From Pyrinomonadaceae bacterium (GTDB lineage: Bacteria; Acidobacteriota; Blastocatellia; Pyrinomonadales; Pyrinomonadaceae), in the NCBI GenBank assembly GCA_035249365.1, contig DATFGP010000022.1:192013-256012 (forward strand): DNA of 64,000 nt, read 5' to 3'. The position numbers were made by a program, and so were the translations under genes. The notes beneath the pieces are model-generated. The model ran no database searches. It saw only the letters and a program-made list of their open reading frames with translations, and was not told the DNA's origin. This document shows, in pieces, positions 2,955-54,550 of this stretch (positions are counted from its first letter, which is position 1; the number at the start of each line of letters is the position of its first letter).

Positions 2955-3030
2955 TATCGACCATCAGCCATCAGCTATCAGCAAACTCAACCTGTTTGAC
3001 TGACCGCTGATAGCTGGCGGCTGATGGCTT
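2955..3030. repeat. Foldback element, CCATCAG/CTGATGG heptamer type
   Basis: CCATCAGCCATCAGCTATCAGC ... GCTGATAGCTGGCGGCTGATGG inverted arms, in the etfB-etfA intercistronic gap. Confidence 0.7.
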
Positions 3031-3802
3031 AAAAAATTCTGGCTTCGGTTCGTAATTTTTCCGCGAGTTGGGCGGCTCCGGCTTTGGCGTCGCCGTCGCC
3101 AAGAAATTGCGTCTGTTTGGTCTTTTGCGGGAAGTAGACTTTCGTGACGCGCTGGTGCGCGGCAGCACTCGCGGCATCTGCGGCGGGCGCGACCTCTTTG
3201 ATCTCTTTCTTCTTCGCCGCCATGATGCCCTTCAAACTCGCGTAGCGAATCTGGCTGATGCCGGACTGAATCGTTAAGAGCGCAGGTCGCGTCATCGCGT
3301 ACCATTGATACCAGCCGCTCTCCAATTCGCGCTTCACACGCAACGCGTCGCCCGATGCGTCAACTTCGATCACGATGGTCGCGTGCGGCAATCCCAAAAG
3401 CTCTGCGAGAATGACGCCCGTTTGCGCGTAGCCGTTATCGTCCGACTGCAAACCCGTCAGGACGAGATCGGCCGCTTCGTCTTTGATTGCTTCTGAAAGA
3501 ACTTTCGCCGCAGCATACGGGCCGAGTTGCACTGTGTCGTCAGAGACGACGTGTATGGCGCGGTCAGCCCCGCGTGCGAGCGCATCTTTGATGACGCTCT
3601 TGACGCGTTGCGGCCCCATCGAACAGACGACGACTTCGCCGCCGTGCTTCTCTTTCAAACGCAGAGCCTCTTCGAGCGCGTAGCCGTCCGATTCGTTGAC
3701 CTCGTAGGAGAGATCGCTCTCCTCGATCCACGTCTCGCTTTTGTTTATGCGCAGGATCGCGTCCTTGTTGGCGACCTGCTTCATGAGCACAATTATCTTC
3801 AT
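3029..3802 (-). CDS. etfB: Electron transfer flavoprotein beta subunit
   Basis: 257 aa. MKIIVLMKQV... matches the EtfB/FixA family. Confidence 0.9.
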   Translation of the reverse strand: MKIIVLMKQVANKDAILRINKSETWIEESDLSYEVNESDGYALEEALRLKEKHGGEVVVCSMGPQRVKSVIKDALARGADRAIHVVSDDTVQLGPYAAAKVLSEAIKDEAADLVLTGLQSDDNGYAQTGVILAELLGLPHATIVIEVDASGDALRVKRELESGWYQWYAMTRPALLTIQSGISQIRYASLKGIMAAKKKEIKEVAPAADAASAAAHQRVTKVYFPQKTKQTQFLGDGDAKAGAAQLAEKLRTEARIF

Positions 3803-3922
3803 AGTCAGTTGTCAGTTGTCCGTAGTCAGTTGTTTTTTGTCCTTTGTCAGTTGCTCGATTCAATCTTTAGCAACTTGCTTGTCAGTCACATGCAACGGAC
3901 AACGGACTACTGACAACGGACA
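3803..3922. repeat. Foldback element, GTCCGTT/GTCAGTT heptamer type (R2), reverse orientation
   Basis: Arms TAGTCAGTTGTCAGTTGTCCGTAGTCAGTTG / CAACGGACAACGGACTACTGACAACGGAC. The loop shares the caagttgctaaagatt core with the other R2 copies. Confidence 0.8.
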
Positions 3923-3927
3923 GTTTT

Positions 3928-5184
3928 TCATTCCTCGAAACGTTTGAATAATAGCGCGGCGTTCGTGCCGCCGAAGCCGAAGCTGTTTGAGAGCGCGTAG
4001 TTGACGTGCGCCTCGCGCGGTTCGTTAGGCACGTAGTCGAGATCGCATTCTGGATCGGGGTTGACGTAGTTGATCGTCGGCGGGAGCATGCCGCGCGTGA
4101 TGGCGAGCACGGAGAAGACTGCTTCGATGCCGCCCGCCGCGCCGAGCAAGTGTCCTGTCATGGATTTGGTCGAACTGACCGCGATGCGGTCTGCGTGTGC
4201 GCCAAAAGTTTTGCGTATGGCGAGAGTTTCAAACTTGTCGTTGTAGGGCGTCGAAGTGCCGTGCGCGTTGATGTAGTCAACTTGTTCTGGCTGCGTCTGG
4301 CCGTCACGAAGCGCCATCTGCATGACGCGCACCGCGCCGGAAGCGGTCTCGTCGGGCATCGTGATGTGGAAGGCGTCGGCGGTCATGCCGTAGCCTGTGA
4401 GTTCGGCGTAAATCTTCGCGCCGCGCGCACGCGCAAACTCCAACTCTTCGAGGATCATGATCCCCGCGCCCTCGCCGATGATGAAGCCGTCGCGGTCGCG
4501 CTCGAACGGGCGAGAGGCATGCGCCGGATCGTCGTTGCGCGTCGAGAGCGCGCGCATCGCAGCGAATCCGGCCACGCTCATCGGCGTGATGGCCGACTCC
4601 GCGCCGCCGCAGATCATCACGTCTGCGTCGCCGCGCTGGATGATCTTGAGACTGTCGCCGATGGCATGTGCTCCGGCGGCGCAGGCTGTGGCCGTTGCGG
4701 AGTTTGGCCCTTTAGCGCCCGAACGTATGGAGACTTGTCCGGCGGCCAAATTGACGATTGCCGATGGAATGAAGAAGGGCGAGACGCGACCGGGGCCGTC
4801 GTCTAAAAGTTTCGAGTGCTCGCGTTCGATTGCCCAGAAGTCGCCGATGCCGCTGCTGATGTATGTGCCTACGCGCTCCGATACGTCGTCGGCAAACTTC
4901 TGCCCGCGCTCGATGAGTCCGCTGTCGTAGATCGCCTCGTCTCCGGCGGCGATGGCGTAGTGAATGAAAGCGCCCATCTTGCGCGCTTCTTTCTTCTCGA
5001 CGAACTTGAGCGGGTCGAAATCTTTGACCTCGGCGGCGATCTTGACCGAAAACTTCTCCGTGTCGAACTTCTTGATGTAGTCCACGCCGCTGCGGCCTTC
5101 CAACAAGGCCGCCCACGTAGATTCAACTGTCAAACCGACGGGAGTGACGAGGCCGAGTCCCGTAACCACGACGCGACGTTTCAA
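3928..5184 (-). CDS. fabF: Beta-ketoacyl-ACP synthase II
   Basis: 418 aa with an unambiguous KAS II sequence (VVVTGLGLVTP...CAAGAHAIGD...HGTSTPYND...). Confidence 0.95.
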   Translation of the reverse strand: MKRRVVVTGLGLVTPVGLTVESTWAALLEGRSGVDYIKKFDTEKFSVKIAAEVKDFDPLKFVEKKEARKMGAFIHYAIAAGDEAIYDSGLIERGQKFADDVSERVGTYISSGIGDFWAIEREHSKLLDDGPGRVSPFFIPSAIVNLAAGQVSIRSGAKGPNSATATACAAGAHAIGDSLKIIQRGDADVMICGGAESAITPMSVAGFAAMRALSTRNDDPAHASRPFERDRDGFIIGEGAGIMILEELEFARARGAKIYAELTGYGMTADAFHITMPDETASGAVRVMQMALRDGQTQPEQVDYINAHGTSTPYNDKFETLAIRKTFGAHADRIAVSSTKSMTGHLLGAAGGIEAVFSVLAITRGMLPPTINYVNPDPECDLDYVPNEPREAHVNYALSNSFGFGGTNAALLFKRFEE

Positions 5185-5691: not shown

Positions 5692-6654
5692 TTAATTGCC
5701 ACCGCTCGCGGCATCCGTCGCGGAGAGCGCGTCGCGCGCAGCCTCAAGGCTCTGAGCGTCTCCGACGTTCAAACACCGCGCGTCGGGAATAATCTGTCGA
5801 ACCAAACCGGACAGAACCTTGCCGGGGCCGACCTCCACGAACGTCTCGACGCCCGCTTGAGCCAGCGCCTCCACAGATTCAAGCCAGCGCACCGGCGACG
5901 AAACCTGCCGCACGAGCGACGCGCGCGCCTCGTTCCCACTCCGAATCGCTACGGCGTCAACGTTCGTGACGAGCGGCACGCGCAAATCCGCAAATTCCGT
6001 CTTGTCCAAATCCGCGCTCAGGCGTTCCTGCGCGGGCTGCATCAAAGCGCAATGGAAGGGCGCGCTCACTGGCAATTTCAACGCGCGTTTCGCCCCGCGC
6101 GCCTTCAACAACTCCATCGCGCGTTCGACCGCCGCCGCGTTCCCCGCGATCACGATCTGCTTCGGCGAGTTGATATTTGCAGGGCTGCACACTTCGCCAT
6201 CCTCTGCGGCTTCGCGGCACGCGTCCTCAATCGTCTGCAAGTCCGCGCCGAGTATCGCGGCCATCGCGCCAACGCCGACGGGCACAGCTTCCTGCATGTA
6301 ACGCCCGCGCGCGCGCACCGTCCGCACCGCATCCTTGAGCGAAAGCGCGCCTGCCGCGACGAGCGCAGAGTATTCGCCGAGACTATGACCGGCGACGAAC
6401 GCGGGCGACGGCAACCCTTCGGACTCCATCGCGCGCAAGGCGGCGACGGAGACGGTCAGGATCGCTGGCTGCGTGTTCTCCGTCAACTGCAACTGATCGG
6501 CAGGCCCCTCAAAACAGAGTTCGGAGAGCGCGAAGCCGAGCGCGTCGTCGGCCTCCGCGAAAACTTCGCGCGCCGACGCGAACCCTTCGGCCAACTCGCG
6601 CCCCATCCCCGCAAACTGCGAGCCTTGCCCCGGAAAAATGTATGCGACAGTCAT
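5692..6654 (-). CDS. fabD: Malonyl CoA-ACP transacylase
   Basis: 320 aa containing FPGQGSQ...GHSLGEY. Confidence 0.95.
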   Translation of the reverse strand: MTVAYIFPGQGSQFAGMGRELAEGFASAREVFAEADDALGFALSELCFEGPADQLQLTENTQPAILTVSVAALRAMESEGLPSPAFVAGHSLGEYSALVAAGALSLKDAVRTVRARGRYMQEAVPVGVGAMAAILGADLQTIEDACREAAEDGEVCSPANINSPKQIVIAGNAAAVERAMELLKARGAKRALKLPVSAPFHCALMQPAQERLSADLDKTEFADLRVPLVTNVDAVAIRSGNEARASLVRQVSSPVRWLESVEALAQAGVETFVEVGPGKVLSGLVRQIIPDARCLNVGDAQSLEAARDALSATDAASGGN

Positions 6655-6667
6655 TTGAAATCTTGGG

Positions 6668-6745
6668 CAAAGGGAAAGGGGTAAGGGGAAAAGGAAGAAA
6701 GTTATTCTTCTCCTTTTACCTTTCCCCTTTACCCTTTGCCCCTTG
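6668..6745. repeat. Foldback element, GGGGTAA/GGGGAAA heptamer type (R3)
   Basis: AGGGAAAGGGGTAAGGGGAAAAGGAAG ... CTTTTACCTTTCCCCTTTACCCTTTGCCCC, between fabD and fabH. Confidence 0.75.
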
Positions 6746-8834: not shown

Positions 8835-8879
8835 CTTGAGGCGCGCGTCGGAAGTAAACGCAAACCGCTCCGAAATCGC

Positions 8880-9065
8880 TTAGACTTCTGTGTTGACGCG
8901 AACCACTTCACGGCCTTTGTAATGGCCGCACTTTGGACAGACGCGATGTGGCATGCGCGGCTCCTGACAGTTCGGGCAAGTCTGTGTCTGCGGCGCACGC
9001 AGCGCATCGTGCGCGCGTCTCTTTCCCGTGCGCGCCTTGGAATGTCTTCGTTTTGGATTAGGCAT
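8880..9065 (-). CDS. rpmF: 50S ribosomal protein L32
   Basis: 61 aa. MPNPKRRHSKARTGKRRAH with a CPNC...CPKCG zinc ribbon. Confidence 0.95.
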   Translation of the reverse strand: MPNPKRRHSKARTGKRRAHDALRAPQTQTCPNCQEPRMPHRVCPKCGHYKGREVVRVNTEV

Positions 9066-9095
9066 AATTATTCCTTAATTAAGTGACTTTTTTTA

Positions 9096-9179
9096 AGTGA
9101 CGAGTGACAAGTGACGAGTGACGAGCTAAAACTAAAACTTGTCTTTAGCTTGTCACTTGTCACTCGTCACTTGTCACTG
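9096..9179. repeat. Foldback element, GTGACAA/GTGACGA heptamer type (R4)
   Basis: AAGTGACGAGTGACAAGTGACGAGTGACGAG ... CTTGTCACTTGTCACTCGTCACTTGTCACTG. Its terminal TCACTG supplies the stop codon of the yceD-like gene. Confidence 0.85.
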
Positions 9180-9695
9180 TTTTTTCAACGCTGCGAGCGC
9201 AGCCCAGCGCGGGTCAATTTCCTGCTGCTCGCAACCGCATGTTTGTGAATTCAAATCCGCGCCGCACGTCGGGCACAAGCCCTTGCAATCCTCGCGGCAC
9301 AGTTGGCGCAGAGGCAGAGCCAGTAAAAGCTGCTCGTGCGCCAGTTCGTCAATATCTATAGAATCGCCTTCGTAAGTAGCGAAAATCAGTTCGTCCGCCT
9401 GTAACTCGGTCGCTTCGCGCTCCGTCTCGTCCAACTCAGCCGGAATGTATGCGACATCGAAATCCGCGTTCACGGGGACGACGACGGGCGCTAGGCAGCG
9501 GTCGCAGCGAACTTCGACCGAAGCGTTGATCGTCCCTTCTAAACGAACCTGCTCACGCCTTTTGCTCGCGCGCCCTTCGACTTTGGCCTCAGACGTGAGG
9601 CGCGTCAGTTCGTCTTCGAGTTGCAGTTCATCGGGCGCGTAGCGTGCGGCGAACGGCGTGCCCGCCTCTTTCAGTTTATCTACCTCGATCCGCAT
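9174..9695 (-). CDS. YceD/DUF177 family protein (large-subunit rRNA/ribosome maturation associated)
   Basis: 173 aa with C-terminal CxxC...CxxC. Conserved position upstream of rpmF. The last codon plus stop (CAG TGA) come from the R4 repeat. Confidence 0.8.
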   Translation of the reverse strand: MRIEVDKLKEAGTPFAARYAPDELQLEDELTRLTSEAKVEGRASKRREQVRLEGTINASVEVRCDRCLAPVVVPVNADFDVAYIPAELDETEREATELQADELIFATYEGDSIDIDELAHEQLLLALPLRQLCREDCKGLCPTCGADLNSQTCGCEQQEIDPRWAALAALKKQ

Positions 9696-11017: not shown

Positions 11018-11027
11018 CTTCAAAACA

Positions 11028-11114
11028 GTAACAAGTGACAAGTGACGAGTGACAAGATAAACGACAAGTTTTTGATTTTAACTTGTCACTTACCACTCGT
11101 CACTTGTCACTGTA
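11028..11114. repeat. Foldback element R4 (GTGACAA type), reverse orientation
   Basis: ACAAGTGACAAGTGACGAGTGACAAG ... CTTGTCACTTACCACTCGTCACTTGTCACTG. It supplies the final S-D-K-stop of the hbd-like gene. Confidence 0.85.
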
Positions 11115-13718: not shown

Positions 13719-13803
13719 ACAGTGACAAGTGACAGGTGACGAGTGACAAGTTAGAAGAACAAGTCGGTTTCAACTTGTCACTCGTCACTTATCACTTGTC
13801 ACT
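13719..13803. repeat. Foldback element R4 (GTGACAA type)
   Basis: CAGTGACAAGTGACAGGTGACGAGTGACAAG ... CTTGTCACTCGTCACTTATCACTTGTCACTG, immediately upstream of the thiolase start. Confidence 0.85.
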
Positions 13804-13945
13804 GTAGTTACGATTATACGTTGGCACTTTGGAGAGTCAAGCAAGGGCTAGTTGCGTGCGGGATCGTCAATTGGCAAGCAAGAGGCAGGAAGGCGGGAGT
13901 GATTCGAGTGTGAATCAGCACCCGTCTTGTCTATGTTAGAGGTGG

Positions 13946-14680
13946 TTATTGCTGATGTTGCTTTCGCTTCTCTTCTAACAGTTGTCGCATCGCTTCGGCA
14001 TTTTTGGGTGCTGTCTTCTTAACATCTTCAATCTTCTTCTCGTAATGGTCGTAGCTAATCGGCAGATTCGGAGGTGTGAAGGCGAGGGACGCACGCGCCT
14101 CAGCACCATACTTTACCTCTTTGGCTTCGACGACCGTTGTTCCAAATTCGTTATGATGCACCATTTTGAGTAATTCCCACTGTAAGTCTGGCGCAGCGTA
14201 AGTCTCCGTGTAGCTCGAATCGTCATGGTTCTGTCTCACGATGAAGACACGGAAGCCGAGCACTGTTCCCTCTCCGGCGAAATTCGGTTGGCTGCGAAAC
14301 TGCGCTTCGCTGATCGGCGCGTGGCGCGACCAACCCGATACAAAACTCAAAGTTTGAGTCTTCTCGTCCACGCTGAAAACTCCACGCTCGTTTTCGGAAA
14401 AGAGCGTTTTCGTCTTGATCTGTCCGTCCGGCTCTCTGAGCTTTTTGATGTCAACGTAAGAACCGTCGGCCTTTGCCAGACGCATGTAAGTACCTTCGCT
14501 AATAATTGTGCCGCCGGATGGTGTGAATGTTCGTTCGGAGAGGATAAATATGTCCTGCGGCTTGGGCGGGCGCAGCGAGTAAGCGATGACAACCGAGACT
14601 ACGCCCAACAGCAGCACGGCGAGCGATGCTGCTCTCATTTTGTTTGACGAGATAAAATTCATCTTCGTTCCTCCTCCCAC
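13946..14680 (-). CDS. Hypothetical secreted protein in an AT-rich islet
   Basis: N-terminal signal-like segment (MRAASLAVLLLGVVSVVIAYS). No recognisable family. Local GC is clearly below the window average. Confidence 0.5.
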   Translation of the reverse strand: MGGGTKMNFISSNKMRAASLAVLLLGVVSVVIAYSLRPPKPQDIFILSERTFTPSGGTIISEGTYMRLAKADGSYVDIKKLREPDGQIKTKTLFSENERGVFSVDEKTQTLSFVSGWSRHAPISEAQFRSQPNFAGEGTVLGFRVFIVRQNHDDSSYTETYAAPDLQWELLKMVHHNEFGTTVVEAKEVKYGAEARASLAFTPPNLPISYDHYEKKIEDVKKTAPKNAEAMRQLLEEKRKQHQQ

Positions 14681-14724
14681 TTAACCTGATGGTGGCTGAG
14701 TTATGTTTGAACCTCCGCGCATCT

Positions 14725-15015
14725 TTAAAAAGAATTACACGTTCCCCGGTAGCAAGATAGGAAAGTTACAGACCAAGGCTCAAACACGCACCGCCCGTAC
14801 TCATAGTAACAACACCTGCCATAGCCAGCATCACAAGGTCTACAGGCAACCAAACAATCTTGACCATACACATCCCAGATACAAGAAGGCGATGAGTTGC
14901 AAGCGGATGCCTCGGCAGGCTTTTCCGCGACTATTAAGGTGAGAGAGATGGCGAGTAGGCACAGGCCGAGAAACATTGACAGGCTGTTAAAGATAGCCCT
15001 CATATTCTTTTTCAT
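14725..15015 (-). CDS. Small secreted cysteine-rich peptide (12 Cys in a ~58-aa mature region)
   Basis: Signal peptide MKKNMRAIFNSLSMFLGLCLLAISLTLIVA, then CNSSPSCIWDVYGQDCLVACRPCDAGYGRCCYYEYGRCVFEPWSVTFLSCYRGTCNSF. Lies in the AT-rich islet. Confidence 0.5.
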   Translation of the reverse strand: MKKNMRAIFNSLSMFLGLCLLAISLTLIVAEKPAEASACNSSPSCIWDVYGQDCLVACRPCDAGYGRCCYYEYGRCVFEPWSVTFLSCYRGTCNSF

Positions 15016-18087: not shown

Positions 18088-18921
18088 ATGCCTGAACTTC
18101 CCGAAGTCGAACTCGTCGCGCGTGCGTTAGATGGTCTCGTCAGCTCGCGCCGCATCGTCGCCGCGAGACTTTTGCGCGCGGGGCTTGCGCCGGAGACGCC
18201 GCCCGCAGTCTTCGCGCGGCGTCTGCGCGGGCGTCGCATCGAGCGCGTCACGCGACGCGGCAAGCATGTGCTGTTCGAGTTGGATCGCGAGTTGATCTTG
18301 ATCGCGCACCTGCGCATGACGGGAAGGTTTTTGCTGTTGCCGCCCGAAGCCGCGCTGCCGAAGCACACACACGCCGTCTTTTATCTCGACGACGACCGCA
18401 GGCTCGTCTTCGCAGATCAACGCCACTTCGGGATGATGAAACTCTGCGGCACAGCGGAACTCGCACACGCGAAGGAACTGCGCCTGCTCGCCCCCGAACC
18501 GTTCTCCGATGACTTCACGCCGCACTACCTGCGCGCCGTCTTCGCACGCACGCGCCGGACTTTGAAGGAGACGCTGCTCGATCAAACGAAGGTCACGGGT
18601 CTCGGCAACATCTACGCCGCAGAGGTTTTGTTTCTAGCGCGCATCAATCCTTTTCGCGTCGCCGCAGAAGTTTCCACGCGCCGCCTGCCGCGCTTGCATC
18701 GCGCCATCCTCGACGTGTTCGACGAGGCAATCGCACACGGCTCGACAATGAATGTCGATCCAGAAAATATTGACGGCAGCTACTACGACGGCGGCGAGGG
18801 TGGTCGTTGGCGCGTCTACGGACGCGAAGGCGAACCGTGTTTGAGTTGCCGCGCACGAATCCGCCGTATTACACACGCCGGACGCTCGACGTATTTTTGC
18901 CCGCGATGCCAACGAGGATAA
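18088..18921 (+). CDS. mutM: Formamidopyrimidine-DNA glycosylase
   Basis: N-terminal MPELPEVE and a C-terminal zinc finger CxxC...CPRCQ. Confidence 0.9.
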   Translation: MPELPEVELVARALDGLVSSRRIVAARLLRAGLAPETPPAVFARRLRGRRIERVTRRGKHVLFELDRELILIAHLRMTGRFLLLPPEAALPKHTHAVFYLDDDRRLVFADQRHFGMMKLCGTAELAHAKELRLLAPEPFSDDFTPHYLRAVFARTRRTLKETLLDQTKVTGLGNIYAAEVLFLARINPFRVAAEVSTRRLPRLHRAILDVFDEAIAHGSTMNVDPENIDGSYYDGGEGGRWRVYGREGEPCLSCRARIRRITHAGRSTYFCPRCQRG

Positions 18922-18926
18922 AGACG

Positions 18927-19040
18927 GGGAAAAGGAAAAGGTAAGGGGGAAAGGTTGAAGACAAAAGCGGGACGCAGCAGTTGATCGCTGCGTCCCGCTT
19001 TACGTTTTTACCTTTCCCCTTTCCCCTTACCCTTTCCCCT
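18927..19040. repeat. Foldback element R3 (GGGGAAA/GGTAAGG type) with a nested GC hairpin, between convergent mutM and the S9 peptidase
   Basis: GGGGAAAAGGAAAAGGTAAGGGGGAAAGG ... CCTTTCCCCTTTCCCCTTACCCTTTCCCC, plus an inner GCGGGACGCAGCAG-ttgat-CGCTGCGTCCCGC stem. Probably terminator-competent. Confidence 0.75.
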
Positions 19041-19043
19041 GAT

Positions 19044-36660: not shown

Positions 36661-36760
36661 TGTCCGTTGTCAGTGGTCAGTTGTCCGTTGTTTATGTGAA
36701 ACGAGCAAGTGACTAAAGATTAGAGCGAACAACTGACAACGGACGACGGACAACGGACAA
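36661..36760. repeat. Foldback element R2 (GTCCGTT/GTCAGTT type), ending at the nuoC ATG
   Basis: TGTCCGTTGTCAGTGGTCAGTTGTCCGTTG ... CAACTGACAACGGACGACGGACAACGGACAA, immediately followed by ATG. Confidence 0.85.
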
Positions 36761-37306: not shown

Positions 37307-37415
37307 GTGACAAGTGACAAGTGACGAGTGACAAGTTAAAGACAAAAACAGTCTTCGCTCGCCACATGTCTTTATCTTATCTTGTCTCGTCACTTGTCAC
37401 CTATCACTCGTCACT
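37306..37415. repeat. Foldback element R4 (GTGACAA type) between nuoC and nuoD
   Basis: AAGTGACAAGTGACAAGTGACGAGTGACAAG ... CTTGTCTCGTCACTTGTCACCTATCACTCGTCACTG. Confidence 0.85.
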
Positions 37416-37423
37416 GATTACTT

Positions 37424-38635: not shown

Positions 38636-38640
38636 AACGT

Positions 38641-38732
38641 CCGTTGTCAGTAGTCAGTCGTCCGTTGCATGTGACAACCGCACAAGTTGCTAAAGATTTG
38701 GATTGAACAACTGACAATGGACTACGGACAGT
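38641..38732. repeat. Foldback element R2 between nuoD and nuoE
   Basis: GTCCGTTGTCAGTAGTCAGTCGTCCGTTG ... CAACTGACAATGGACTACGGACAG. Confidence 0.85.
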
Positions 38733-40697: not shown

Positions 40698-40722
40698 ACT
40701 TCATAAGCGAGGTAGTCTTATT

Positions 40723-41253
40723 GTGAGAACCATAAGTGAAGAGATCATCCATGAAGGAAAACATTTCAAGGTGATTCACGAGACTGTTGAGATTGAAGGG
40801 AAAATTAGGGTATGGGAATATGTTAAACGCAAAGACGGGACGCGGACAATAGCAATTGATCAAAACAATAATATTCTTTTAACAAGAGAATACCGGCATG
40901 AGTTGCGAGCTGAAGATTGGCGCTTGCCCGGCGGCAGATTGGATGATGAGAGTGAGCCGATAGCAGAAGCTGCTAAAAGGGAGTTTCGAGAAGAAACCGG
41001 CTTTATCGCCGACAAGTGGGAATATCTATGGTCAACCACGCCGGAATCAACGGTTAGATATTTCAGGCATTTTTTTTTGGCGACCGAACTTAAGCAAGGA
41101 CAGAGCGAACCTGAAGAGGGGACAAAGATCACTGTTCACTGGATACCACTTCCTCAAGCATATGAGATGGCACTGCGCGGCGATATTAAAGAAGAGATTG
41201 CCGCGCTTGCGATTATCAGGTTCTTTCATAAAGCTGAAATGAGAGGAAGGTAA
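40723..41253 (+). CDS. NUDIX hydrolase (ADP-ribose pyrophosphatase-like) in AT-rich island
   Basis: Nudix box GGRLDDESEPIAEAAKREFREETG. Local GC is much lower than in the flanking nuo genes. Confidence 0.8.
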   Translation: MRTISEEIIHEGKHFKVIHETVEIEGKIRVWEYVKRKDGTRTIAIDQNNNILLTREYRHELRAEDWRLPGGRLDDESEPIAEAAKREFREETGFIADKWEYLWSTTPESTVRYFRHFFLATELKQGQSEPEEGTKITVHWIPLPQAYEMALRGDIKEEIAALAIIRFFHKAEMRGR

Positions 41254-41369
41254 TATCTGAATTCTTCAACTTTGATAAAGTATGTTGAGTCTGAAAGTTT
41301 TTTGGTAAACGCATTGGATTTTGGCTAAGGCGCCGCGATCTAATAATTTATATTTTTGGCCTTTGCCTG

Positions 41370-42386
41370 TTGCAATCGTTCTTCTTCACATGTCAAGGAC
41401 ACATAGCGATGCAACCACCGTCGAACTTGAATAACAATAAGCCGGGTAAAGATAATGAATCGTTATTAAAGAAAGTCCTCAGATTACTCGGCATTCTAGG
41501 CTTGGGCGTTTTAGGTAGTTGGCTGGCTGGTAAAATTCCAACCTCAGACCACTTGCCTAATTTGCAGCGGTTTCAGATGGCTATTCCTTGGATATTGGCT
41601 ATCTTTTTCTTTATAACAACGTCGCTCTTGTATTTGAAATCGCGCGGGCATAAAGAGCTGGAAGGCAGAAAGAACGCACTGGAAAGCAGAAAAACCGAAT
41701 TAGATGCGGAATGCAAACGCTTACAAGAAGATTACTCGTCATTAGAGATCGAAGTCAAAAGATTACAGGAGGAGAACTTAAAGCTTCAAATCGAACTGCC
41801 ACGGGAGTGGGTAGGCATTCAGGAGCGGACTGGACTTCAAGGTTACGATCCTGACTTGAGTGATAGCCCGTTTCATCCTGAAAGGTGCTTGCCGACAATC
41901 GGTAAGAGTTTAAGTTTTATGGGTCACGGCGCAAGCAAATGGACGGCGCATGTCCCACCGCTGGAAGATATGCTTGAAAGAATCCGGGGTGAAAGAAACA
42001 AGAATAACTCAAAGGCAGTAGTAAAATTTCTTATTCTTAATCCGGCTCACGAAAAGAATACAAAACAACAGCGCCGCAGAATTGCAGTCAGTTTGATGAA
42101 TCTCAAATTTTTGCAGAATGAATTTCCGGAAGTGTTAATGATAAGGGTTTTCAATCACCTCCCACAGTTCAGATTAATTTTTATTGATGGTAAAAAACTC
42201 GTTGTTGGACATTACGGGGGCGAACAAAGAAAAGAGAGCGACAATACTCCTTTGCATGTTTATAGTATCGAAGGTGAATGGAGTTTCTTTCATCCTTTCG
42301 AGGAACATTTCAATACTGAATGGGCTGCCGCCAAGGTTCCAGAGTGGACGGAAATCGACACCATTGCAAACCAACCGGTCAACTGA
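41370..42386 (+). CDS. Hypothetical membrane protein with coiled-coil and an uncharacterised C-terminal domain (AT-rich island)
   Basis: Two TM segments, then a heptad-rich region (ELEGRKNALESRKTELDAECKRLQEDYSSLEIEVKRLQEENLKLQ), then an about 170-aa C-terminal domain. No family recognised. Confidence 0.55.
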   Translation: MQSFFFTCQGHIAMQPPSNLNNNKPGKDNESLLKKVLRLLGILGLGVLGSWLAGKIPTSDHLPNLQRFQMAIPWILAIFFFITTSLLYLKSRGHKELEGRKNALESRKTELDAECKRLQEDYSSLEIEVKRLQEENLKLQIELPREWVGIQERTGLQGYDPDLSDSPFHPERCLPTIGKSLSFMGHGASKWTAHVPPLEDMLERIRGERNKNNSKAVVKFLILNPAHEKNTKQQRRRIAVSLMNLKFLQNEFPEVLMIRVFNHLPQFRLIFIDGKKLVVGHYGGEQRKESDNTPLHVYSIEGEWSFFHPFEEHFNTEWAAAKVPEWTEIDTIANQPVN

Positions 42387-42409
42387 CAAGAAGACAGTGA
42401 GAAATCATT

Positions 42410-43465
42410 ATGAGTTCCAAGACAAGATTTCTTGATCTAGCCATGCACGGCGGATGCTCGAAGAAGGTTGGCGGCAAGGATTTACAAAGACTGCTTTCCA
42501 ATTTAGCTGACTCCGAAACGGATCACCAATTTTCTGAAATTAAAGGCTGGCTGGATTTTGGCCTTTATGAGCGTAAAGATGAGGCTCTAATAAGTAATGT
42601 TGATATTGTTCTGCCGATGGTTCCTAATCCTGCCGACTTCGGGGAAATTGTTGTTGCACATGTCTTGAGCGACATTTACACATCTGGAGCAAAGCCGCTT
42701 TTCGGGCTTAACATCCTCGGCGTTCAACAAACCATTGATTTAAGCAGTAACGGCAATGACATAAAGTTAATGCTGGCATCTGCTGCTAAAAAGCTACACA
42801 GCGCAGGAGCGCAACTCGTCGGCGGGCACTCGATTGGAAATCAATCTGACCTTTATTACGGTCTAGCAGTGTTCGGGATAATTAACAAAGATTCGTTAGT
42901 AACGAACAAAGGGGCCAAAACAGGTGATGCTTTAGTCCTAACAAAACCGCTTGGAACCAGCATCGCCTCAAAACTATGGAAGAGTAATCATCACCTTGAG
43001 AACGATTTCCAAGATGTGTTAACAGGTATGAAGCAACTCAATGACATAGCAGCAGAAGAAATGCTTAAAGGCCAAGCTCACGCTTGTACTGACATCACAG
43101 GTTTTGGCTTGCTCGGCCATACACATAATCTGCTTCGTGCGAGTGAGGCAGCTTGCGTCATCAACGTCGAGAACTTGCCCATTTATGATTCGGTGCAAGA
43201 CTTCGGCGGAGCTGAGTATCAAACGATGATTTTCGATAAGAATAAAGAATACGTCGTTGACTACGTAAATGACGATGATGTAGAGCTAACTTCATTGCTT
43301 GATGTTGTTATTTATGATGCTCAGGTTTCCGGCGGTCTACTCGTAAGTCTTACTCATGAGGAAGCTGGCAAATATGTCGAACGATTGAGAGACAGAGGAG
43401 TTACAGCATCTATTATTGGCGAGGTAGTAGAAGGTCAAGCGGGGTATATAACGCTTTTGCCATAA
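42410..43465 (+). CDS. selD: Selenide, water dikinase (selenophosphate synthetase), Cys-type, in AT-rich island
   Basis: Collinear with E. coli SelD throughout. N-terminal HGGCSKK loop corresponds to the catalytic Cys/Lys. Also PMVPNPADFGEI, GGHSIG, DITGFGLLGH. Confidence 0.8.
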   Translation: MSSKTRFLDLAMHGGCSKKVGGKDLQRLLSNLADSETDHQFSEIKGWLDFGLYERKDEALISNVDIVLPMVPNPADFGEIVVAHVLSDIYTSGAKPLFGLNILGVQQTIDLSSNGNDIKLMLASAAKKLHSAGAQLVGGHSIGNQSDLYYGLAVFGIINKDSLVTNKGAKTGDALVLTKPLGTSIASKLWKSNHHLENDFQDVLTGMKQLNDIAAEEMLKGQAHACTDITGFGLLGHTHNLLRASEAACVINVENLPIYDSVQDFGGAEYQTMIFDKNKEYVVDYVNDDDVELTSLLDVVIYDAQVSGGLLVSLTHEEAGKYVERLRDRGVTASIIGEVVEGQAGYITLLP

Positions 43466-43477
43466 ACGGATTTATAA

Positions 43478-45789: not shown

Positions 45790-45882
45790 GGAGGGATGAG
45801 GGCGGAGGGATGAGGGATGAATAAGAGATGTTCTTAAGCTCTTAGTTATTCCTGTTCATCCCTCATCCCTTATCCTTCATCT
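45790..45882. repeat. Foldback element, GGGATGA heptamer type, between nuoG and nuoH
   Basis: GGAGGGATGAGGGCGGAGGGATGAGGGATGA ... TCATCCCTCATCCCTTATCCTTCATCTC. Confidence 0.8.
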
Positions 45883-45892
45883 CTTGATCGTT

Positions 45893-46975
45893 ATGGACTG
45901 GAACACAATCACATACGTCGGCTTGAAAATGCTGGGCATCAACATCGCCTTCGTGGTGGTCTTGATGATCGTGGCCTATACGGTGCTGGCGGAGCGGCGC
46001 ATTCTCGCGCTGATTCAGGGGCGCTTGGGGCCAAACCGCGTCGGGCCGGGCGGGCTTCTGCAACCGTTCGCAGACCTTTTGAAGTTTATCTTCAAAGAAG
46101 AGATCGTGCCCGATAAGGCGACGAAGTTCGTCTATTTTCTCGCACCCTTCATCGCCATCGTCGGCGCGCTGATGACGATCATAGTCTACCCGTTCGGGCC
46201 GGAAGTGAACCTTCCGTTCCTCGGCACGATCAAACTCGTCGTCGCGCAGTTCGATGTAGGACTCCTGTATGTGTTGGCGATCACTTCCATAGGCGTCTAC
46301 GGTATCGCGCTTGCCGGTTGGTCTTCCAACAACAAGTACAGTCTGATGGGCGGCCTGCGCGCGGCGGCTCAACTCATCTCTTATGAGCTTTCGCTGGGGC
46401 TGGGGCTGGTCGGCGTCGTGTTGTTGTCGGGCACGCTTGACCTCTACCAGATCGTCGAGCATCAATCCGGCTATTGGTGGGTGGCGGGCGTCGTGCCAAT
46501 TCCGCGCTGGAATATTTTCCCGCAATTCATAGGCTTCGTCGTCTACCTGATCTCCGCGATTGCAGAGACGAACCGCGTGCCGTTCGACTTGCCGGAGGCG
46601 GAGACGGAACTCGTCGCGGGCTTCCACACGGAATACAGTGCCTTGAAGTTCGCGCTCTTCTTCATGGCCGAGTACGTCAACATGTTCACGGTCTCGATGC
46701 TGGCGGCCACGCTCTTCTTCGGCGGCTGGAATTTCCCCTGGCTCGATCTCCTCGTCGCACGCGGCGGGTTTCTGTTCGGGCTGTTGAGCCTCGTCGCGTT
46801 TCTCTTGAAAGTTTTGTTCTTTCTCTTTTTGTATATCTGGCTGCGCGGGACGCTGCCGCGTTTTCGCTTCGACCAGTTGATGAACTTCGGTTGGAAATTT
46901 TTGCTGCCGGTGGCGATCCTGAACGTCGTTTTGACGGCGACGGTCGTGTTCGTCTTGATGAGTTTACGACCCTAG
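45893..46975 (+). CDS. nuoH: NADH-quinone oxidoreductase subunit H
   Basis: ND1 family (LAERRILALIQGRLGPNRVGP...). Confidence 0.95.
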   Translation: MDWNTITYVGLKMLGINIAFVVVLMIVAYTVLAERRILALIQGRLGPNRVGPGGLLQPFADLLKFIFKEEIVPDKATKFVYFLAPFIAIVGALMTIIVYPFGPEVNLPFLGTIKLVVAQFDVGLLYVLAITSIGVYGIALAGWSSNNKYSLMGGLRAAAQLISYELSLGLGLVGVVLLSGTLDLYQIVEHQSGYWWVAGVVPIPRWNIFPQFIGFVVYLISAIAETNRVPFDLPEAETELVAGFHTEYSALKFALFFMAEYVNMFTVSMLAATLFFGGWNFPWLDLLVARGGFLFGLLSLVAFLLKVLFFLFLYIWLRGTLPRFRFDQLMNFGWKFLLPVAILNVVLTATVVFVLMSLRP

Positions 46976-47055
46976 CGCGCGGGGCGTGGACGCAGGCAGG
47001 CATCTTTGTAAACATCGCCTGCTGCGGTCGGCTTTCGCTCGATAGTTTTTCACTT

Positions 47056-47730
47056 ATGACGACTTTTCTCTTCGTGCTGTTGGCTGGTCTCGCGGTCGGT
47101 TCTGCCGTCGCGATGGTAGTGCAGCGCAATCCGCTCTACAGCGCGATCTCTCTGATCGGCGTCTTCATCGCGCTCGCAGGGTTGTACCTGACGCTCGCCG
47201 CGCCCTTCCTCGCTGCCATACAGATCATCGTCTACGCGGGCGCGATCATGGTGCTCGTCGTCTTCGTCATCATGCTGTTGAACGTCGAAGAAGAGGAGCG
47301 CAAACCCGTGCGGCTCGGTTATCTGACCGCCGCCGCCATCCTGCTCGCGGCGATTCTCTTCGGCGAGGCCGGATTCATACTCTATTTCATGGGGCAGTCG
47401 AGCCTCGAACCGCTCGACCCGAACGCCATCGGCGACCCCTCGAACGTCGGCCTGACCACATCCATCGGGACGGGACTTTTCACGAACTACCTGCTGCCCT
47501 TCGAGATCACGTCCGTGCTGCTCTTGATGGCGATTGTCGGCGCGTTGACGCTCGCGCGTCGCGTCGGGTTGCGACCGACCGATCTAGTGATCCCCGGCGC
47601 GCAGGTGCTGACGCGACAGACGCTCGACCCGAAAGCGATTGGCGACGCAACAGAAGTTGTGACTTCGACGACCGCAGAGGCCGAACGCGTGCTCGGACTC
47701 GAAGGCGCGCGGCACAGGCGCGAACAGTAG
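47056..47730 (+). CDS. nuoJ: NADH-quinone oxidoreductase subunit J (extended C-terminus)
   Basis: ND6 family N-terminus MTTFLFVLLAGLAVGSAVAMVV. Follows nuoH directly, with no nuoI between them. Confidence 0.85.
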   Translation: MTTFLFVLLAGLAVGSAVAMVVQRNPLYSAISLIGVFIALAGLYLTLAAPFLAAIQIIVYAGAIMVLVVFVIMLLNVEEEERKPVRLGYLTAAAILLAAILFGEAGFILYFMGQSSLEPLDPNAIGDPSNVGLTTSIGTGLFTNYLLPFEITSVLLLMAIVGALTLARRVGLRPTDLVIPGAQVLTRQTLDPKAIGDATEVVTSTTAEAERVLGLEGARHRREQ

Positions 47731-48058: not shown

Positions 48059-48179
48059 TGTCCGTTGTCAGTAGTCAGTTGTCCGTTGCTTGTGGTTACG
48101 ACACAAGTTGCTGAAGATTGAGTAGATCAACTGACAATGAACAAAGAACAACTGACAACGGACTACTGACAACGGACAG
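48059..48179. repeat. Foldback element R2 between nuoK and nuoL
   Basis: TGTCCGTTGTCAGTAGTCAGTTGTCCGTTG ... CAACTGACAACGGACTACTGACAACGGACAG, with 5 nt to the nuoL ATG. Confidence 0.85.
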
Positions 48180-52222: not shown

Positions 52223-52825
52223 TTGAAGTTGGTCGGATTTGAAGTAAGTATGTTGAAACTAAGCAAGAGGTTTTATCTCGCTACGGCGTTGCTGCTCGCT
52301 TTGCTCTGCGGCGCATTGCCGCTCGCGGGGTCGCCGCACGCTAATTCAAACGAACGCGTTAGTATTAAGCTCAAGGGCGTTGACGGGAAGACTTACGATG
52401 TGGCCGCGATGCGCGGCGAAGTGGTGCTCGTCTCTTTCGGCGCGACGTGGTGCAAGCCGTGCGCGTGGGAGTTGGAAGCCCTCGAAGAGTTGAAGCGTGA
52501 GTATGCGGGGCGCGGCGTCAAGTTTTTGTGGGTGAGCATTGAGAATGACGATCAAACTTCAAACGAGTTGCTGCGCGATTACGCGAAGTCTCTGAAGATG
52601 ACGATTCCCGTCCTGCGCGATCCTGAAAAGACCGCCTTCGCGCAGTTCAGCGAGCGCGTGCGTCTGCCGATGGTCGTCTTCTTCGACCGCGAAGGGAATT
52701 TCATCCCGCCCAAGCACACGGGCATGACTTCGCAAGCAGAGGATTACAAGAAACTGATCCGCAGCCGTCTCGACCAGATACTCCGCGCCGAAGAGGATGC
52801 GGGCGGCGCGCCCCCGCTGCCGTAA
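52223..52825 (+). CDS. TlpA/ResA-like thiol-disulfide oxidoreductase (thioredoxin fold, WCKPC) inserted between nuoM and nuoN
   Basis: Signal/lipoprotein-like N-terminus, and SFGATWCKPC in a TlpA-like context. Confidence 0.8.
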   Translation: MKLVGFEVSMLKLSKRFYLATALLLALLCGALPLAGSPHANSNERVSIKLKGVDGKTYDVAAMRGEVVLVSFGATWCKPCAWELEALEELKREYAGRGVKFLWVSIENDDQTSNELLRDYAKSLKMTIPVLRDPEKTAFAQFSERVRLPMVVFFDREGNFIPPKHTGMTSQAEDYKKLIRSRLDQILRAEEDAGGAPPLP

Positions 52826-52886
52826 TCATTGTTGCTGTCACCGCTCGCCGTTTGAATTTGACGGCTGTTAGTGCTGAGTTAAAAAG

Positions 52887-54464
52887 ATGAACTTGTGTCT
52901 CGCATTTCAAATTGCTCAGGCCGCGTCGCCTGACATCAATTTCATGCTCATCCTGCCGGAGACGATCATCTCCGTCGTGGGCGTGCTGGTCATGCTCGTC
53001 GATGCGTTCACGCGCCGCTCGAGCCAGCGCTGGGTGACGGGACTGCTCTCGCTCGCGGGACTCGTCGCCGCCGCAGCCGTCTGCATCCTCATGTGGAACG
53101 ATCAGACGACAGCGCGCGAAGCCTTCAACGGAATGATCGTGCTCGATCGCATGCGGCTCTCCTTCACGCTCGTCTTCCTCGTCGTCTCAGCACTCACGGT
53201 GCTCATCTCGATGATCTGGGTCGAATGGGAACACTTGCCTGCGGGCGAGTTTCATTCGCTCCTGATGTTCGCCACCGTCGGCATGACGCTGATGGCTTCG
53301 GGCGGCGACCTCGTGATCATCTTTCTCGGTCTCGAACTACTCTCCATCGCCACCTACGTCATGGCCGGATTCCGACGCACGGATGTGCGCTCGAACGAGT
53401 CCTCGATGAAGTATTTCATACTGGGCGCGTTCTCGTCTGCGTTCCTGCTCTACGGCATCGCGCTCGTCTACGGCGGCACGTCACTCGCAAACGGCGGCGC
53501 GGGCACGACCAACATTAAAGAACTCGCGCTCAGAGTCGGTGCGGAGAACGCTCTGGCCTACCCCGCGCTCCTTTACGCGGGCGCGGCGTTGATGCTCGTC
53601 GGCTTCGGATTCAAGATCGCGACCGCGCCGTTCCACGTCTGGACGCCCGACGTGTACGAGGGCGCGCCTACGCCCGTCACGGCTTTCATGGCCGCCGGGC
53701 CGAAGGCTTCCGGCTTCGCAGCCTTCATGCGCGTCTTCCTCTTCGGCTTCCCCTTCATCGCTGCAACGACGAACGCCGCGCAACTCCATTCCGCATGGAT
53801 GAACGCCCTCTGGCTGCTCGCGATCCTAACGATGTCGGTCGGCAACCTCGCTGCGCTCGTGCAGACGAACGTCAAACGCATGCTCGCCTATTCGTCCATC
53901 GCGCACGCGGGCTACGCGCTAGTCGGCTTCGTCGCGGCGGGACAGGCGCGCGATGAGGCGTTGCAAAATGAAGCCATCGCCGCCGTCGCCTTCTACCTTC
54001 TGGCCTACGCGGTGATGAACCTCGGCGCGTTCGCCGTCGTCACGCTCATCGCGCGCAGCGGCGACCGACGCACGGAGATCGAAGACTACAACGGCATCGG
54101 ATTTACCGCGCCCGCGCTCTCCTTCGCGCTCACGCTTTTTCTACTGAGTTTGCTCGGTATCCCTCTCACCGCAGGATTCATGGGCAAGGTGATGGTCTTC
54201 CGCGCCGCGCTCGATCAAGGCTTCGTCGCGCTCGTCGTCATCGGCGTTCTCAACACTGCGATTTCGGTATACTATTATTTGCGGCTCGTCGTCGTGATGT
54301 TCTTCCGCGAACGCTCGACCGCTTGGAGCGCACCCGCCGTGCCCGTCAGCGTCGCGCTGGCGATCATCATCACGGCGCTCGGCGTGTTTTATCTGGGAAT
54401 TTTTCCGGGTCATGTGTTGGACGCCTTCCGCGACTCGCAACAAGCTGTCAGCCAATTGAAGTGA
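52887..54464 (+). CDS. nuoN: NADH-quinone oxidoreductase subunit N
   Basis: ND2 family. Its TGA stop is the first TGA of the following R4 element. Confidence 0.9.
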   Translation: MNLCLAFQIAQAASPDINFMLILPETIISVVGVLVMLVDAFTRRSSQRWVTGLLSLAGLVAAAAVCILMWNDQTTAREAFNGMIVLDRMRLSFTLVFLVVSALTVLISMIWVEWEHLPAGEFHSLLMFATVGMTLMASGGDLVIIFLGLELLSIATYVMAGFRRTDVRSNESSMKYFILGAFSSAFLLYGIALVYGGTSLANGGAGTTNIKELALRVGAENALAYPALLYAGAALMLVGFGFKIATAPFHVWTPDVYEGAPTPVTAFMAAGPKASGFAAFMRVFLFGFPFIAATTNAAQLHSAWMNALWLLAILTMSVGNLAALVQTNVKRMLAYSSIAHAGYALVGFVAAGQARDEALQNEAIAAVAFYLLAYAVMNLGAFAVVTLIARSGDRRTEIEDYNGIGFTAPALSFALTLFLLSLLGIPLTAGFMGKVMVFRAALDQGFVALVVIGVLNTAISVYYYLRLVVVMFFRERSTAWSAPAVPVSVALAIIITALGVFYLGIFPGHVLDAFRDSQQAVSQLK

Positions 54465-54550
54465 CGAGTGACAGGTGACAAGTGACAAGTTAAAGCAAAA
54501 AACTTGTTTTGTTCTTGCTTGTCACTCGTCACTCGTCACTCGTCACTTCT
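54463..54550. repeat. Foldback element R4 following nuoN
   Basis: AGTGACGAGTGACAGGTGACAAGTGACAAG ... CTTGTCACTCGTCACTCGTCACTCGTCAC. Confidence 0.85.

Follow-up and report, generated by a model that had tools for sequence, protein, structure and literature searches.

Heptamer repeats (STRR in cyanobacteria; TAACTGA, PMC4679880), intervening sequences (IVSs) in ribosomal RNA (rRNA) and extragenic palindromes are already known from bacteria. Here we describe 17 foldback elements, 16 of them with arms made of tandem 7-mers, in 64,000 nucleotides of DNA from a Pyrinomonadaceae bacterium (contig DATFGP010000022.1 of assembly GCA_035249365.1, positions 192,013 to 256,012; hereafter the window). One of the elements encloses a gene for an S23p protein, a member of the family PF05635 (23S rRNA intervening-sequence protein). 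We consider it reasonably probable that the hairpins of the window are members, lacking an open reading frame (ORF), of a class of palindromic elements whose full form is the PF05635 cassette, and that they have spread by copying.

The IVSs of Coxiella, Leptospira, Brucella and Haemophilus consist, like the cassette in the window, of an inverted-repeat stem around a PF05635 ORF; ORF-less forms likewise exist, and the element sits on a hairpin tip and forms part of a longer transcript (PMC4990558). In the Coxiella 23S IVS, a 28-bp stem is cut by RNase III, the S23p ORF lies in the loop, and three to four tandem GACAGAT heptamers, variable in number between strains, stand upstream of the ORF (PMC4990558); that paper notes heptamers for this one IVS only. 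Written in the AG register that is used below, GACAGAT becomes AGATGAC. The window elements differ from the IVSs in occupying intergenic and intercistronic gaps of mRNAs and not rRNA helices, in mostly lacking an ORF, in having both arms made entirely of heptamers and in forming many families within one genome; excision by RNase III is established for the IVS alone.

The cyanobacterial STRR heptamers and the TAACTGA heptamers of Beggiatoaceae, cyanobacteria and Bacteroidetes (PMC4679880) are likewise tandem 7-nt units of several families and almost always intergenic, often adjoin start codons, and have a patchy phylogeny that suggests horizontal spread. They are reported mainly as direct arrays, with one inverted set in the TAACTGA study, whereas the window elements are hairpins with family-specific loops; that study makes no mention of S23p or of the IVS (PMC4679880). 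The host here is a Pyrinomonadaceae-like acidobacterium, the window proteins being nearest to those of Pyrinomonadaceae MAGs (metagenome-assembled genomes), and not a cyanobacterium as for the canonical STRR1-3. The cyanobacterial STRR heptanucleotide repeats reportedly go back to Mazel et al. 1990, and no unit in the window equals CCCCAGT, TTGGTCA or CAACAGT, which we take to be the STRR units.

The elements of the window also resemble REP, BIME and REPIN sequences in being dispersed extragenic palindromes inside operons; mRNA stabilisation and termination are among the roles that have been suggested for REP. The Correia (NEMIS) elements of Neisseria are short inverted-repeat elements that are co-transcribed with their neighbours and whose hairpins are processed by RNase III. 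Correia elements differ from those described here: their terminal inverted repeats are defined, they have a TA target duplication, and they are not known to show heptamer periodicity or any link to S23p; by analogy, they may serve as a working model for the behaviour of the hairpins on mRNA.

Heptamer hairpins and an S23p cassette in the window

The key to the identity of these elements, which was absent from the first-pass annotation of this DNA, is the S23p gene inside one member of the R4 family (unit GTGACRA). At 28985-29427 the R4 arms are 370 nt apart, with 31 of 38 positions Watson-Crick paired, and enclose an intact ORF of 125 amino acids (29005-29382) that matches PF05635 with an E value of 1.9e-39 and also matches TIGR02436 ('four helix bundle protein'). 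PDB entries 2gsc and 2rld, the solved relatives of this protein, each contain five chains as deposited. S23p is related to Avd, a pentamer of diversity-generating retroelements that binds nucleic acid and reverse transcriptase; the window protein matches two Avd models below their cut-offs (bAvd-like PF22296, E 7.5e-8; NF033474, E 1.8e-8, score 34.6 against a cut-off of 80), and no reverse transcriptase, template or variable repeat was found near its gene.

The S23p gene is kept at the same site, between the genes for a Big_2 protein and ZapA, in two relatives (L115 and L116; L numbers denote the loci compared), and dN/dS values of 0.04-0.07 between these genes and that of the window, at a dS of about 0.9, indicate that it is under purifying selection. 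Apart from this orthologous site, cassettes of the form [GTGACRA]n-ORF-[TYGTCAC]n occupy other sites in L117-L120 and L043, and a further one is present in a metagenome-assembled genome (MAG) of Gemmataceae (Planctomycetota; L112), where an S23p protein 63% identical to that of the window has (GTGACRA)n upstream and (TYGTCAC)n downstream. Homologues of about 78% identity are found elsewhere in Pyrinomonadaceae, between an ECF sigma factor gene and a Ser/Thr kinase gene and between OmpA and HisKA genes, and have these two arrays on their two sides as well. L119 and L120 have a complete solo hairpin (one without a gene) behind the ORF, which gives the order 5' arm, ORF, 5' arm, loop, 3' arm. GWTAAA.ACAA opens the loops of R4 solos and also those of the ORF-bearing cassettes of this clade, in which these nucleotides encode the N-terminus; the shared start fits solos as deletion derivatives of the cassette. 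Solos vastly outnumber full cassettes, since, when 113 GTGACRA loci and five nuo loci of relatives (L201-L205) were searched for more S23p genes with a hidden Markov model (HMM), only L043 and L112 had one.

The repeats also reach into the called proteins. N-termini given as VTSDE..., MTSDEQ... and GGRREAGGGRREA... are translated upstream repeat units (P0121, P0126, P0138, P0139 and P0270, and 29005-29034 in the window), and the sole upstream start of the window gene is a GTG within the last repeat unit. Annotated starts in the PF05635 family are therefore often doubtful, and ORF ends that abut such arrays are often artefacts of annotation.

Inverted-repeat and tandem-repeat scans, a period-7 scan and the reading of every intergenic gap gave the elements listed here (strand where assigned; dG in kcal/mol; z relative to dinucleotide shuffles).

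2955-3030: CCATCAG/AGCYATC hairpin between etfA-like (1964-2944, - strand) and etfB-like (3029-3802, - strand) genes; dG -44, z -7.8
3802-3922: R2 (GTCMGTT/AACKGAC) hairpin between a ketoacyl-synthase gene (3928-5184, - strand) and the etfB-like gene, with its loop oriented relative to transcription as in the nuo copies; dG -45.3, z -6.5
6665-6741: R3 (GGGGTAA/GGGGAAA) hairpin between convergent genes; z -5.4
9095-9178: R4 (GTGACRA/TYGTCAC) solo adjoining a yceD-like gene (9174-9695, - strand), whose stop codon lies within the last repeat unit; z -9.5
11025-11113: R4 solo between a TPR gene and a 3-hydroxyacyl-CoA dehydrogenase gene; z -8.4
13719-13805: R4 solo upstream of a thiolase gene, with U8, AAGGAG and the start codon coming next, in this order, on the - strand; z -11.7
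18919-19046: GC-rich hairpin inside R3-like heptamer arms, in the gap between fpg and DPP-IV, which are convergent; dG -75, z -10.7
21277-21331: short AGCTAAC/AGCTAAT hairpin with extra direct units, of a family also present at nuo junctions of L203
21653-21766, + strand: R4 solo between a SAM_alpha riboswitch match (21525-21600) and the ATG at 21757, which its outer stem covers (homocysteine S-methyltransferase/MTHFR gene); z -9.4
23696-23800, + strand: CGCAGAG hairpin, a near-perfect 45-bp stem followed by a U-rich run; dG -97.8, z -18
28985-29427, + strand: full-length R4 cassette with the PF05635 gene; 5' arm (GTGACRA)x4 at 28990-29016, 3' arm (TYGTCAC)x4 at 29395-29425
36661-36759, + strand: R2 hairpin filling the nuoB-nuoC gap (stop codon and 4 nt, hairpin, then A and ATG); z -5.9
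37304-37424, + strand: R4 hairpin filling the nuoC-nuoD gap, with the TAA stop of nuoC and the TTA that immediately precedes the ATG of nuoD as the base of its stem; z -6.0
38639-38732, + strand: R2 hairpin between nuoD and nuoE, missed by the first repeat scans and recognized when the gap was read; z -3.1
45792-45884, + strand: GGGATGA hairpin in the nuoG-nuoH gap; z -5.8
48059-48178, + strand: R2 hairpin in the nuoK-nuoL gap; z -7.0
54458-54549, + strand: R4 solo that begins inside the last nuoN codons and ends at ...CTTATG; dG -58.4, z -12.1

All 17 elements form a long inverted-repeat stem, and TRF reports period 7 with 3-7 copies for 16 of them; period-7 runs number 22 in the window, compared with a mean of 0.06 and a maximum of 1 in 50 first-order Markov simulations. 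The 15 elements that were folded as RNA have energies of -34 to -98 kcal/mol and stems of 20-45 bp, and every one is more stable than dinucleotide shuffles, 0-1 of 200 shuffles being equally stable (z = -3.1 to -18; window G+C about 59%). R4 occupies seven sites (9095, 11025, 13719, 21653, 28985/29427 with the arms split by the gene, 37304 and 54458), R2 (GTCMGTT) four (3802, 36661, 38639 and 48059) and R3 (GGGGWAA) two (6665 and 18919), and CCATCAG (2955), AGCTAAC (21277), GGGATGA (45792) and CGCAGAG (23696) have one copy each. R4 elements end in CAGTGAC...GTCACTG, and R2 elements in TGTCCGT...ACGGACA.

Much of the first-pass annotation agrees with this census. It had recognized a dispersed foldback repertoire of several 7-mer families in intercistronic gaps, with inverted tandem arms that pair when folded and that are carried on polycistronic mRNAs, and the two R3 copies, the R4 termini, the shared R2 loop and the position of all copies between called ORFs were read as we find them. 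The common arm architecture has a single exception, CGCAGAG, which had been listed as a heptamer singleton together with GGGATGA, CCATCAG and AGCTAAC; its units are spaced 8-11 nt apart, and it is hence no true heptamer array. The shared R4 loop that had been proposed is partly confirmed in its start, GWTAAA.ACAA. Hairpins with tandem arms do lie where they had been placed, but the counts were too high: about 19 elements become 17, eight copies of R4 become seven sites and five of R2 become four, and the clustering in the nuo operon is real with five internal copies and one after nuoN, six and not seven.

Housekeeping genes border the hairpins: etfBA, fabF, fabH/plsX, yceD, thiolase, hydroxyacyl-CoA dehydrogenase, fpg, a metH-like gene and nuoA-N. 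In the co-directional nuoA-N operon the junctions B/C, C/D, D/E, G/H and K/L hold a hairpin, and the sixth copy stands just after nuoN. Since the hairpins occupy intercistronic gaps of operons, they are co-transcribed with their neighbours. Most nuo-junction copies run straight into ...ATG with no U-tract past the stem, as read off the sequences, and the nuoD/E hairpin has a U-rich stretch downstream; a U-run after the stem is present only at 13719 (U8, - strand) and at 23696, and the latter hairpin is probably the terminator of the preceding gene. Ordinary GC-rich hairpins, terminator-like and without heptamer periodicity, are located at 1906-1938, 30828-30870 and 56104-56155. Because L111 has an R4 hairpin at the site corresponding to 1906-1938, a given gap can be occupied by either a plain terminator or a heptamer hairpin.

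At gathering thresholds Rfam matched none of the hairpins, a SAM_alpha riboswitch being its sole match in the window; no tRNA or rRNA was found in the window, and no transposase, RAYT and Y1_Tnp included, was matched among the window ORFs scanned. An assembly artefact was rejected, as the same elements occur at orthologous sites of independent assemblies and in finished plasmids of isolates.

Heptamer arrays beside PF05635 genes

PF05635 is a large family, with 21,891 representative clusters (50% identity) at E <= 1e-3, and the arrangement seen in the window recurs throughout much of the sample that we examined. A scan of JGI metagenomes based on an alignment of 68 diverse members gave 80 loci whose proteins are 46-72% identical to that of the window; 74 of these, together with the window cassette and six related cassettes, make up the 81 loci whose flanks were usable. 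Of these 81, 71 have an array of period 7 or 8 in at least one flank, compared with 6 of 72 control positions in the same loci, and among the well-scoring arrays a period of 7 fits best for 42 of 49 upstream and 50 of 62 downstream. In most loci the upstream array recurs downstream as its reverse complement. Complementary arms are present in 63 loci, with 1736 of 1989 stem positions Watson-Crick paired; this ungapped stem count was used instead of duplex-fold energies, which for long flanks are equally low in the controls.

The unit is specific to each locus (AGTGGCT, AGGGGTC, AGTTTCG, AGTACCC, AGGGACT, AGGCAGT, AGGTAAC and others) and in the 5' arm usually has the form AGK plus 4 nt, the 3' arm being its reverse complement. 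AG is present in 42 of 50 unique 5'-arm units, against 58% expected from letter shuffling, and CT in 10 of 50; AGT occurs at 36 loci and AGG at 13. As the elements are palindromic, this polarity is a difference between the 5' and 3' arms and not between strands, and mere stop-codon selection was rejected as an explanation of the AG rule, given that stops are lacking in 17 of the 42 units with AG. Most arms (120 of 167) are 4-5 units long, a sharp mode in the length distribution. Divergence of the 7-mer goes with that of the protein: the mean unit distance is 0.67, 1.74 and about 3.2 at protein distances below 0.25, of 0.25-0.4 and above 0.4, respectively (Mantel p = 0.0005). The unit thus changes with the protein, and arms and ORF therefore travel together.

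Stop codons in the arms are a tendency and no rule. In R4 the GTGACRA arm has TGA in all three frames and the TYGTCAC arm has none, and R2 is the reverse, the GTCMGTT arm being free of stops and the complementary arm having TGA; the earlier claim that each arm places stops in all three frames thus applies to one R4 or R2 arm per strand and fails for the complementary arm. Among the 50 unique S23p-linked units, stops are contained in 54% of 5' arms and 26% of 3' arms, with about 42% expected.

The same array pattern is found at 28 of 44 PF05635 loci on viral contigs of IMG/VR. On plasmids, PF05635 matches are mostly from Nostocales (Nostoc, Calothrix and Anabaena), an order known for STRR heptamers. 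A finished plasmid of Nostoc edaphicum carries an S23p gene between nrdB and nrdA, arranged as (AGTAGGG)x8...(CCCTACT)x5, and S23p cassettes with heptamer arms lie between cas6 and cas4 on pANA02 of Anabaena sp. 90 (L207) and between cas10 and cmr3 on a plasmid of Picosynechococcus PCC 7003 (L210). Such insertions might account for the appearance of 23S_rRNA_IVP in surveys of cas neighbourhoods, and the association with arrays may explain more generally why PF05635 genes stand between cas, nrd or nuo genes without a role in the pathway.

The pattern (GTGACRA)x3+GTGAC alone occurs at more than 113 loci among GTDB species genomes. Among the matches listed, most are from Pyrinomonadaceae, Blastocatellia and other Acidobacteriota, and the hairpin form is found also in MAGs of Gemmataceae, Thermomicrobiales, Clostridia and Latescibacterota. 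The repertoire had first been taken to be species-specific; these loci, and the same arms and loops in other Pyrinomonadaceae, contradict that view.

We conclude that the classical 23S rRNA IVS is the same kind of cassette placed in an rRNA helix. The rRNA IVS with its orphan S23p ORF, the STRR-like heptamers and the dispersed operon hairpins appear as facets of one element class, and the large, uncharacterised PF05635 family gains a testable partner, namely the 7-mer array beside each gene. In the searchable literature, outside which most subscription journals lie, we found no statement that PF05635 genes as a rule lie between inverted heptamer arrays, and no prior description of abundant ORF-less hairpin families in Acidobacteriota operons or of their turnover at fixed junctions.

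Turnover at operon junctions and the explanations weighed

The window was compared with syntenic relatives (L025, L056, L111, L115 and L116) and with five nuo loci (L201-L205), in which NuoC shares 96-73% identity with its counterpart in the window. At nuoB/C, the window and L201 have R2, L202 has AGCYRTC, L203 AGCTRTT and L205 AGGAGTC, and L204 has a 17-nt gap and no hairpin; the nuoC/D junction holds R4, GCGGATT, AGTTTCA, AGTCTCA, GCGGATT and AGTTCAA across the six genomes. Three etf/fab gaps that contain CCATCAG, R2 and R3 elements in the window contain an octamer array, an R4-like hairpin and a GGACCTG hairpin in L111, the last at the site of the 6665 element. Nearly every junction of the complex I operon can thus hold a 30-bp stem that is swapped between species, which bears on translation and mRNA processing.

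Elements of one family recur at unrelated sites together with their loops. The CCATCAG element of the window, whose uniqueness as a singleton had been assumed, shares its arms and its 18-nt loop ACAGGTTGAGTTTGCTGA (read on the - strand at 2955) with elements at nuoB/C and nuoD/E in L202 and at nuoK/L in L203, the loop being identical in the nuo-junction hairpins of L202; likewise, the loop GCAAGTTGCTAAAGATTG is common to all six R2 copies. Because non-repetitive loops are shared at unrelated sites, whole elements have been copied, and local slippage does not suffice. Where elements are orthologous, it is the arms that are conserved (91% identical, with loops 47%). The 48059 element and its counterpart in the close relative L201 have identical arms (50 of 50 aligned positions), the GGGATGA family at nuoG/H is found also in L202, L203 and L205 with arms 88-92% and loops 24-41% identical, and the 13719 element is present at the orthologous site of L056 and L025 with conserved arms and diverged loops. 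The conservation of arms at a nearly saturated dS (about 0.9, measured for one orthologous pair, the S23p gene between the window and L115/L116) implies either that the 7-mer is constrained or that copies are homogenised against each other.

Empty, reduced and nested states are also seen. The 128-nt R3-like element (18919-19046) is present in the window and in L056, but its site in L025 is empty, with a gap of about 8 nt, and two AAGCTGA units are left as a remnant in the nuoK/L gap of L204. Hairpins are nested in others: a GRTTCAT hairpin lies in the loop of a GGGATGA hairpin at nuoG/H of L202, a CGTGAAT-type hairpin lies within decayed R4 arms at the Big2/ZapA site of L201, and L034, L037 and L084 have nested hairpins likewise. 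The Big2/ZapA site itself gives a series, from R4 with S23p in the window, L115 and L116, through R4 arms around 190 nt of non-coding DNA in L203 and the decayed R4 with its nested hairpin in L201, to nothing in L202; no S23p remnant was found in the 190-nt loop of L203 by blastn, tblastn and six-frame reading. In L056 (about 6300-6560), the ortholog of the 11025 element has three tandem copies of its 3' arm, the last of them partial and each separated from the next by a short spacer, and duplication therefore occurs at the level of arms, beyond mere change in unit number.

In the scenario that we favour, each family, with its own 7-mer and its own loop, would be copied into new intergenic sites, landing preferentially in stop-to-start gaps or in the loop of an existing hairpin, as rRNA IVSs likewise sit at helix tips. 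With time, copies would lose their cargo, be invaded by another family, or decay or be deleted, and the same operon junction would in this way come to hold different families in related genomes. Within operons, the elements would be transcribed with the flanking genes and fold into stems of 20-45 bp, a length compatible with RNase III cleavage; by analogy, RNase III probably cuts them, or the stems may simply be tolerated, and a cut between cistrons would be harmless. Elements that fold away or are cut on the transcript could thus sit in essential operons such as nuo. We infer the copying mechanism from these patterns, and likewise that S23p recognises its own 7-mer array, which is suggested by the purifying selection on the gene, the co-divergence of the 7-mer, and arms of 4-5 units beside a protein whose solved relatives (2gsc and 2rld) have five chains each in their entries. 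A bolder version, which we regard as rather doubtful, would make PF05635 proteins pentameric, sequence-specific binders of their own heptamer arrays, with about one unit per subunit, that drive or guide the copying of cassettes into hairpin loops; STRR, the rRNA IVS and the acidobacterial operon hairpins would then be one hitherto unrecognised class of mobile elements that keeps overwriting the junctions of essential operons.

Several observations weigh against the hairpins being ORF-less relatives of the S23p cassette that spread by copying. An HMM search of all window ORFs places a PF05635 gene in only 1 of the 17 elements, no S23p gene was found with R2, R3, GGGATGA or other window units in the DNA examined, and AG is missing from some families (GCGGATT and GRTTCAT). 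The one filled and empty pair (18919-19046 in the window and L056 versus L025) has no target-site duplication and hence no footprint of known transposition chemistry. Neither a nuclease or recombinase activity nor a specificity for nucleic-acid sequences is known for PF05635, and the literature calls the family uncharacterised; S23p genes might be mere cargo that lands in pre-existing heptamer hairpins, cleavage by RNase III is put forward purely by analogy, and the conservation of GGGATGA at nuoG/H down to a NuoC identity of 73% could reflect a host function and not selfish persistence. Finally, G.U mismatches are not in excess over A.C mismatches on the transcribed strand, either in cassette arms (81 v 82) or in solos (50 v 56; 38 solos of known transcription direction), so that no mark of selection on the RNA fold as such is seen in the sequences. 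This symmetry does not speak against RNA folding, of which the RNA is clearly capable; strand-symmetric complementarity points to copying or homogenising at the DNA level, or to young copies.

It is also conceivable, if unlikely, that the hairpins are RNA elements of benefit to the host (stabilisers, attenuators, terminators or stop-start couplers), diversified by slippage or gene conversion, with S23p as a passenger; such a role would be compatible with spread by copying. The exact filling of stop-to-start gaps, with stop and pre-start nucleotides forming the base of the nuoC/D stem, the presence of a hairpin at nearly every nuo junction in five of the six genomes, and the terminator-like copies at 13719 (U8, then a Shine-Dalgarno sequence and ATG, - strand) and 23696 (U-rich run) would all be expected of it, as would arms conserved over loops, and the retention of GGGATGA at nuoG/H across distant relatives is its best case. 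Yet hairpins are absent from nuoB/C and nuoK/L in L204 and from fpg/DPP-IV in L025, and the replacement of one family by another at a single junction argues against a sequence-specific host function. Nor does a host role fit the lack of a G.U over A.C bias on the sense strand or the occurrence of the same families between convergent genes and inside other hairpins, and the class-wide link to PF05635 is left unexplained by it.

Two further readings appear far less plausible. Local replication slippage or template switching at simple repeats, yielding elements neither mobile nor functional, has very little to recommend it: the varying unit number between orthologs (with the triplicated 3' arm of L056 and the two-unit remnant of L204), the differing heptamer copy number among Coxiella strains (PMC4990558) and the symmetric G.U and A.C mismatches, which fit an origin at the DNA level, are accommodated, but not the family-specific 17-20-nt non-repetitive loops shared across unrelated sites and genomes, the same 7-mer cassette with a 63% identical protein in two phyla, or arm cores that are unchanged where dS, at about 0.9, is near saturation. 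Equally improbable is a REP/REPIN-type origin, with mobilisation in trans by a RAYT (an IS200/IS605-like Y1 transposase) encoded elsewhere in the genome. Dispersed, high-copy extragenic palindromes, some doubled or nested and in several families per genome, are indeed what such a system would produce; against this, the ORF between inverted arms is PF05635 and no RAYT, the window ORFs scanned contain no RAYT or Y1_Tnp match, and the arms are 28-35-nt 7-mer arrays, with R4 ends of CAGTGAC/GTCACTG, and not the 20-40-bp palindromes with a GTAG or CGTC tag that characterize REP (PMC3733652).

As to assignment, membership in REP/REPIN was rejected, the elements being 75-130 nt long with heptamer arms, no GTAG/CGTC tag and no RAYT in the window. 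A classic MITE was rejected as well, given the missing target-site duplication at the one pair and an ORF-bearing relative that encodes PF05635 and no known transposase. Of the label MITE/REP-like that the elements had been given, one part survives, the relation of the solos to a longer ORF-bearing form, with which they share the arm and the start of the loop.

Neighbouring genes and other features

The SAM_alpha match (RF00521; 21525-21600, + strand) scores 41.2 bits (gathering score 36), and the genome that holds it appears to be acidobacterial. Downstream of the match is a fused homocysteine S-methyltransferase/MTHFR ORF (21757-23652), and the R4 hairpin of about 110 nt is interposed between the aptamer and the start.

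The nuo operon seems prone to take up unrelated cargo. Between nuoF and nuoG, at 40700-43470, a low-GC island (47-49% compared with about 59%) holds a NUDIX gene, an ORF of 338 amino acids that belongs to no family and a gene related to AIR synthase; at this position L201 has nothing, L202 and L203 have an ORF of 137 amino acids, and L204 has a HicB/HicA pair. L205 has a SIMPL gene between nuoE and nuoF, and in the window a redoxin/AhpC-TSA/thioredoxin-like gene (52223-52825) is inserted between nuoM and nuoN. The gene for NuoI, the 4Fe-4S ferredoxin subunit, is absent between nuoH and nuoJ in the window (45884-47730) and in all five syntenic loci, where the gap between the two genes is GC-rich, measures 37-124 nt and has no heptamer hairpin in any of the six genomes.

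Two ORFs of 244 and 96 amino acids at 13946-15015 have no Pfam match and a lower GC content, and L056 and L025 have only about 85-100 nt at this place. The apparent gap of 339 nt between plsX and the 9095 hairpin probably contains a small unannotated gene on the - strand (8835-9090); rpmF is the gene expected between yceD and plsX.

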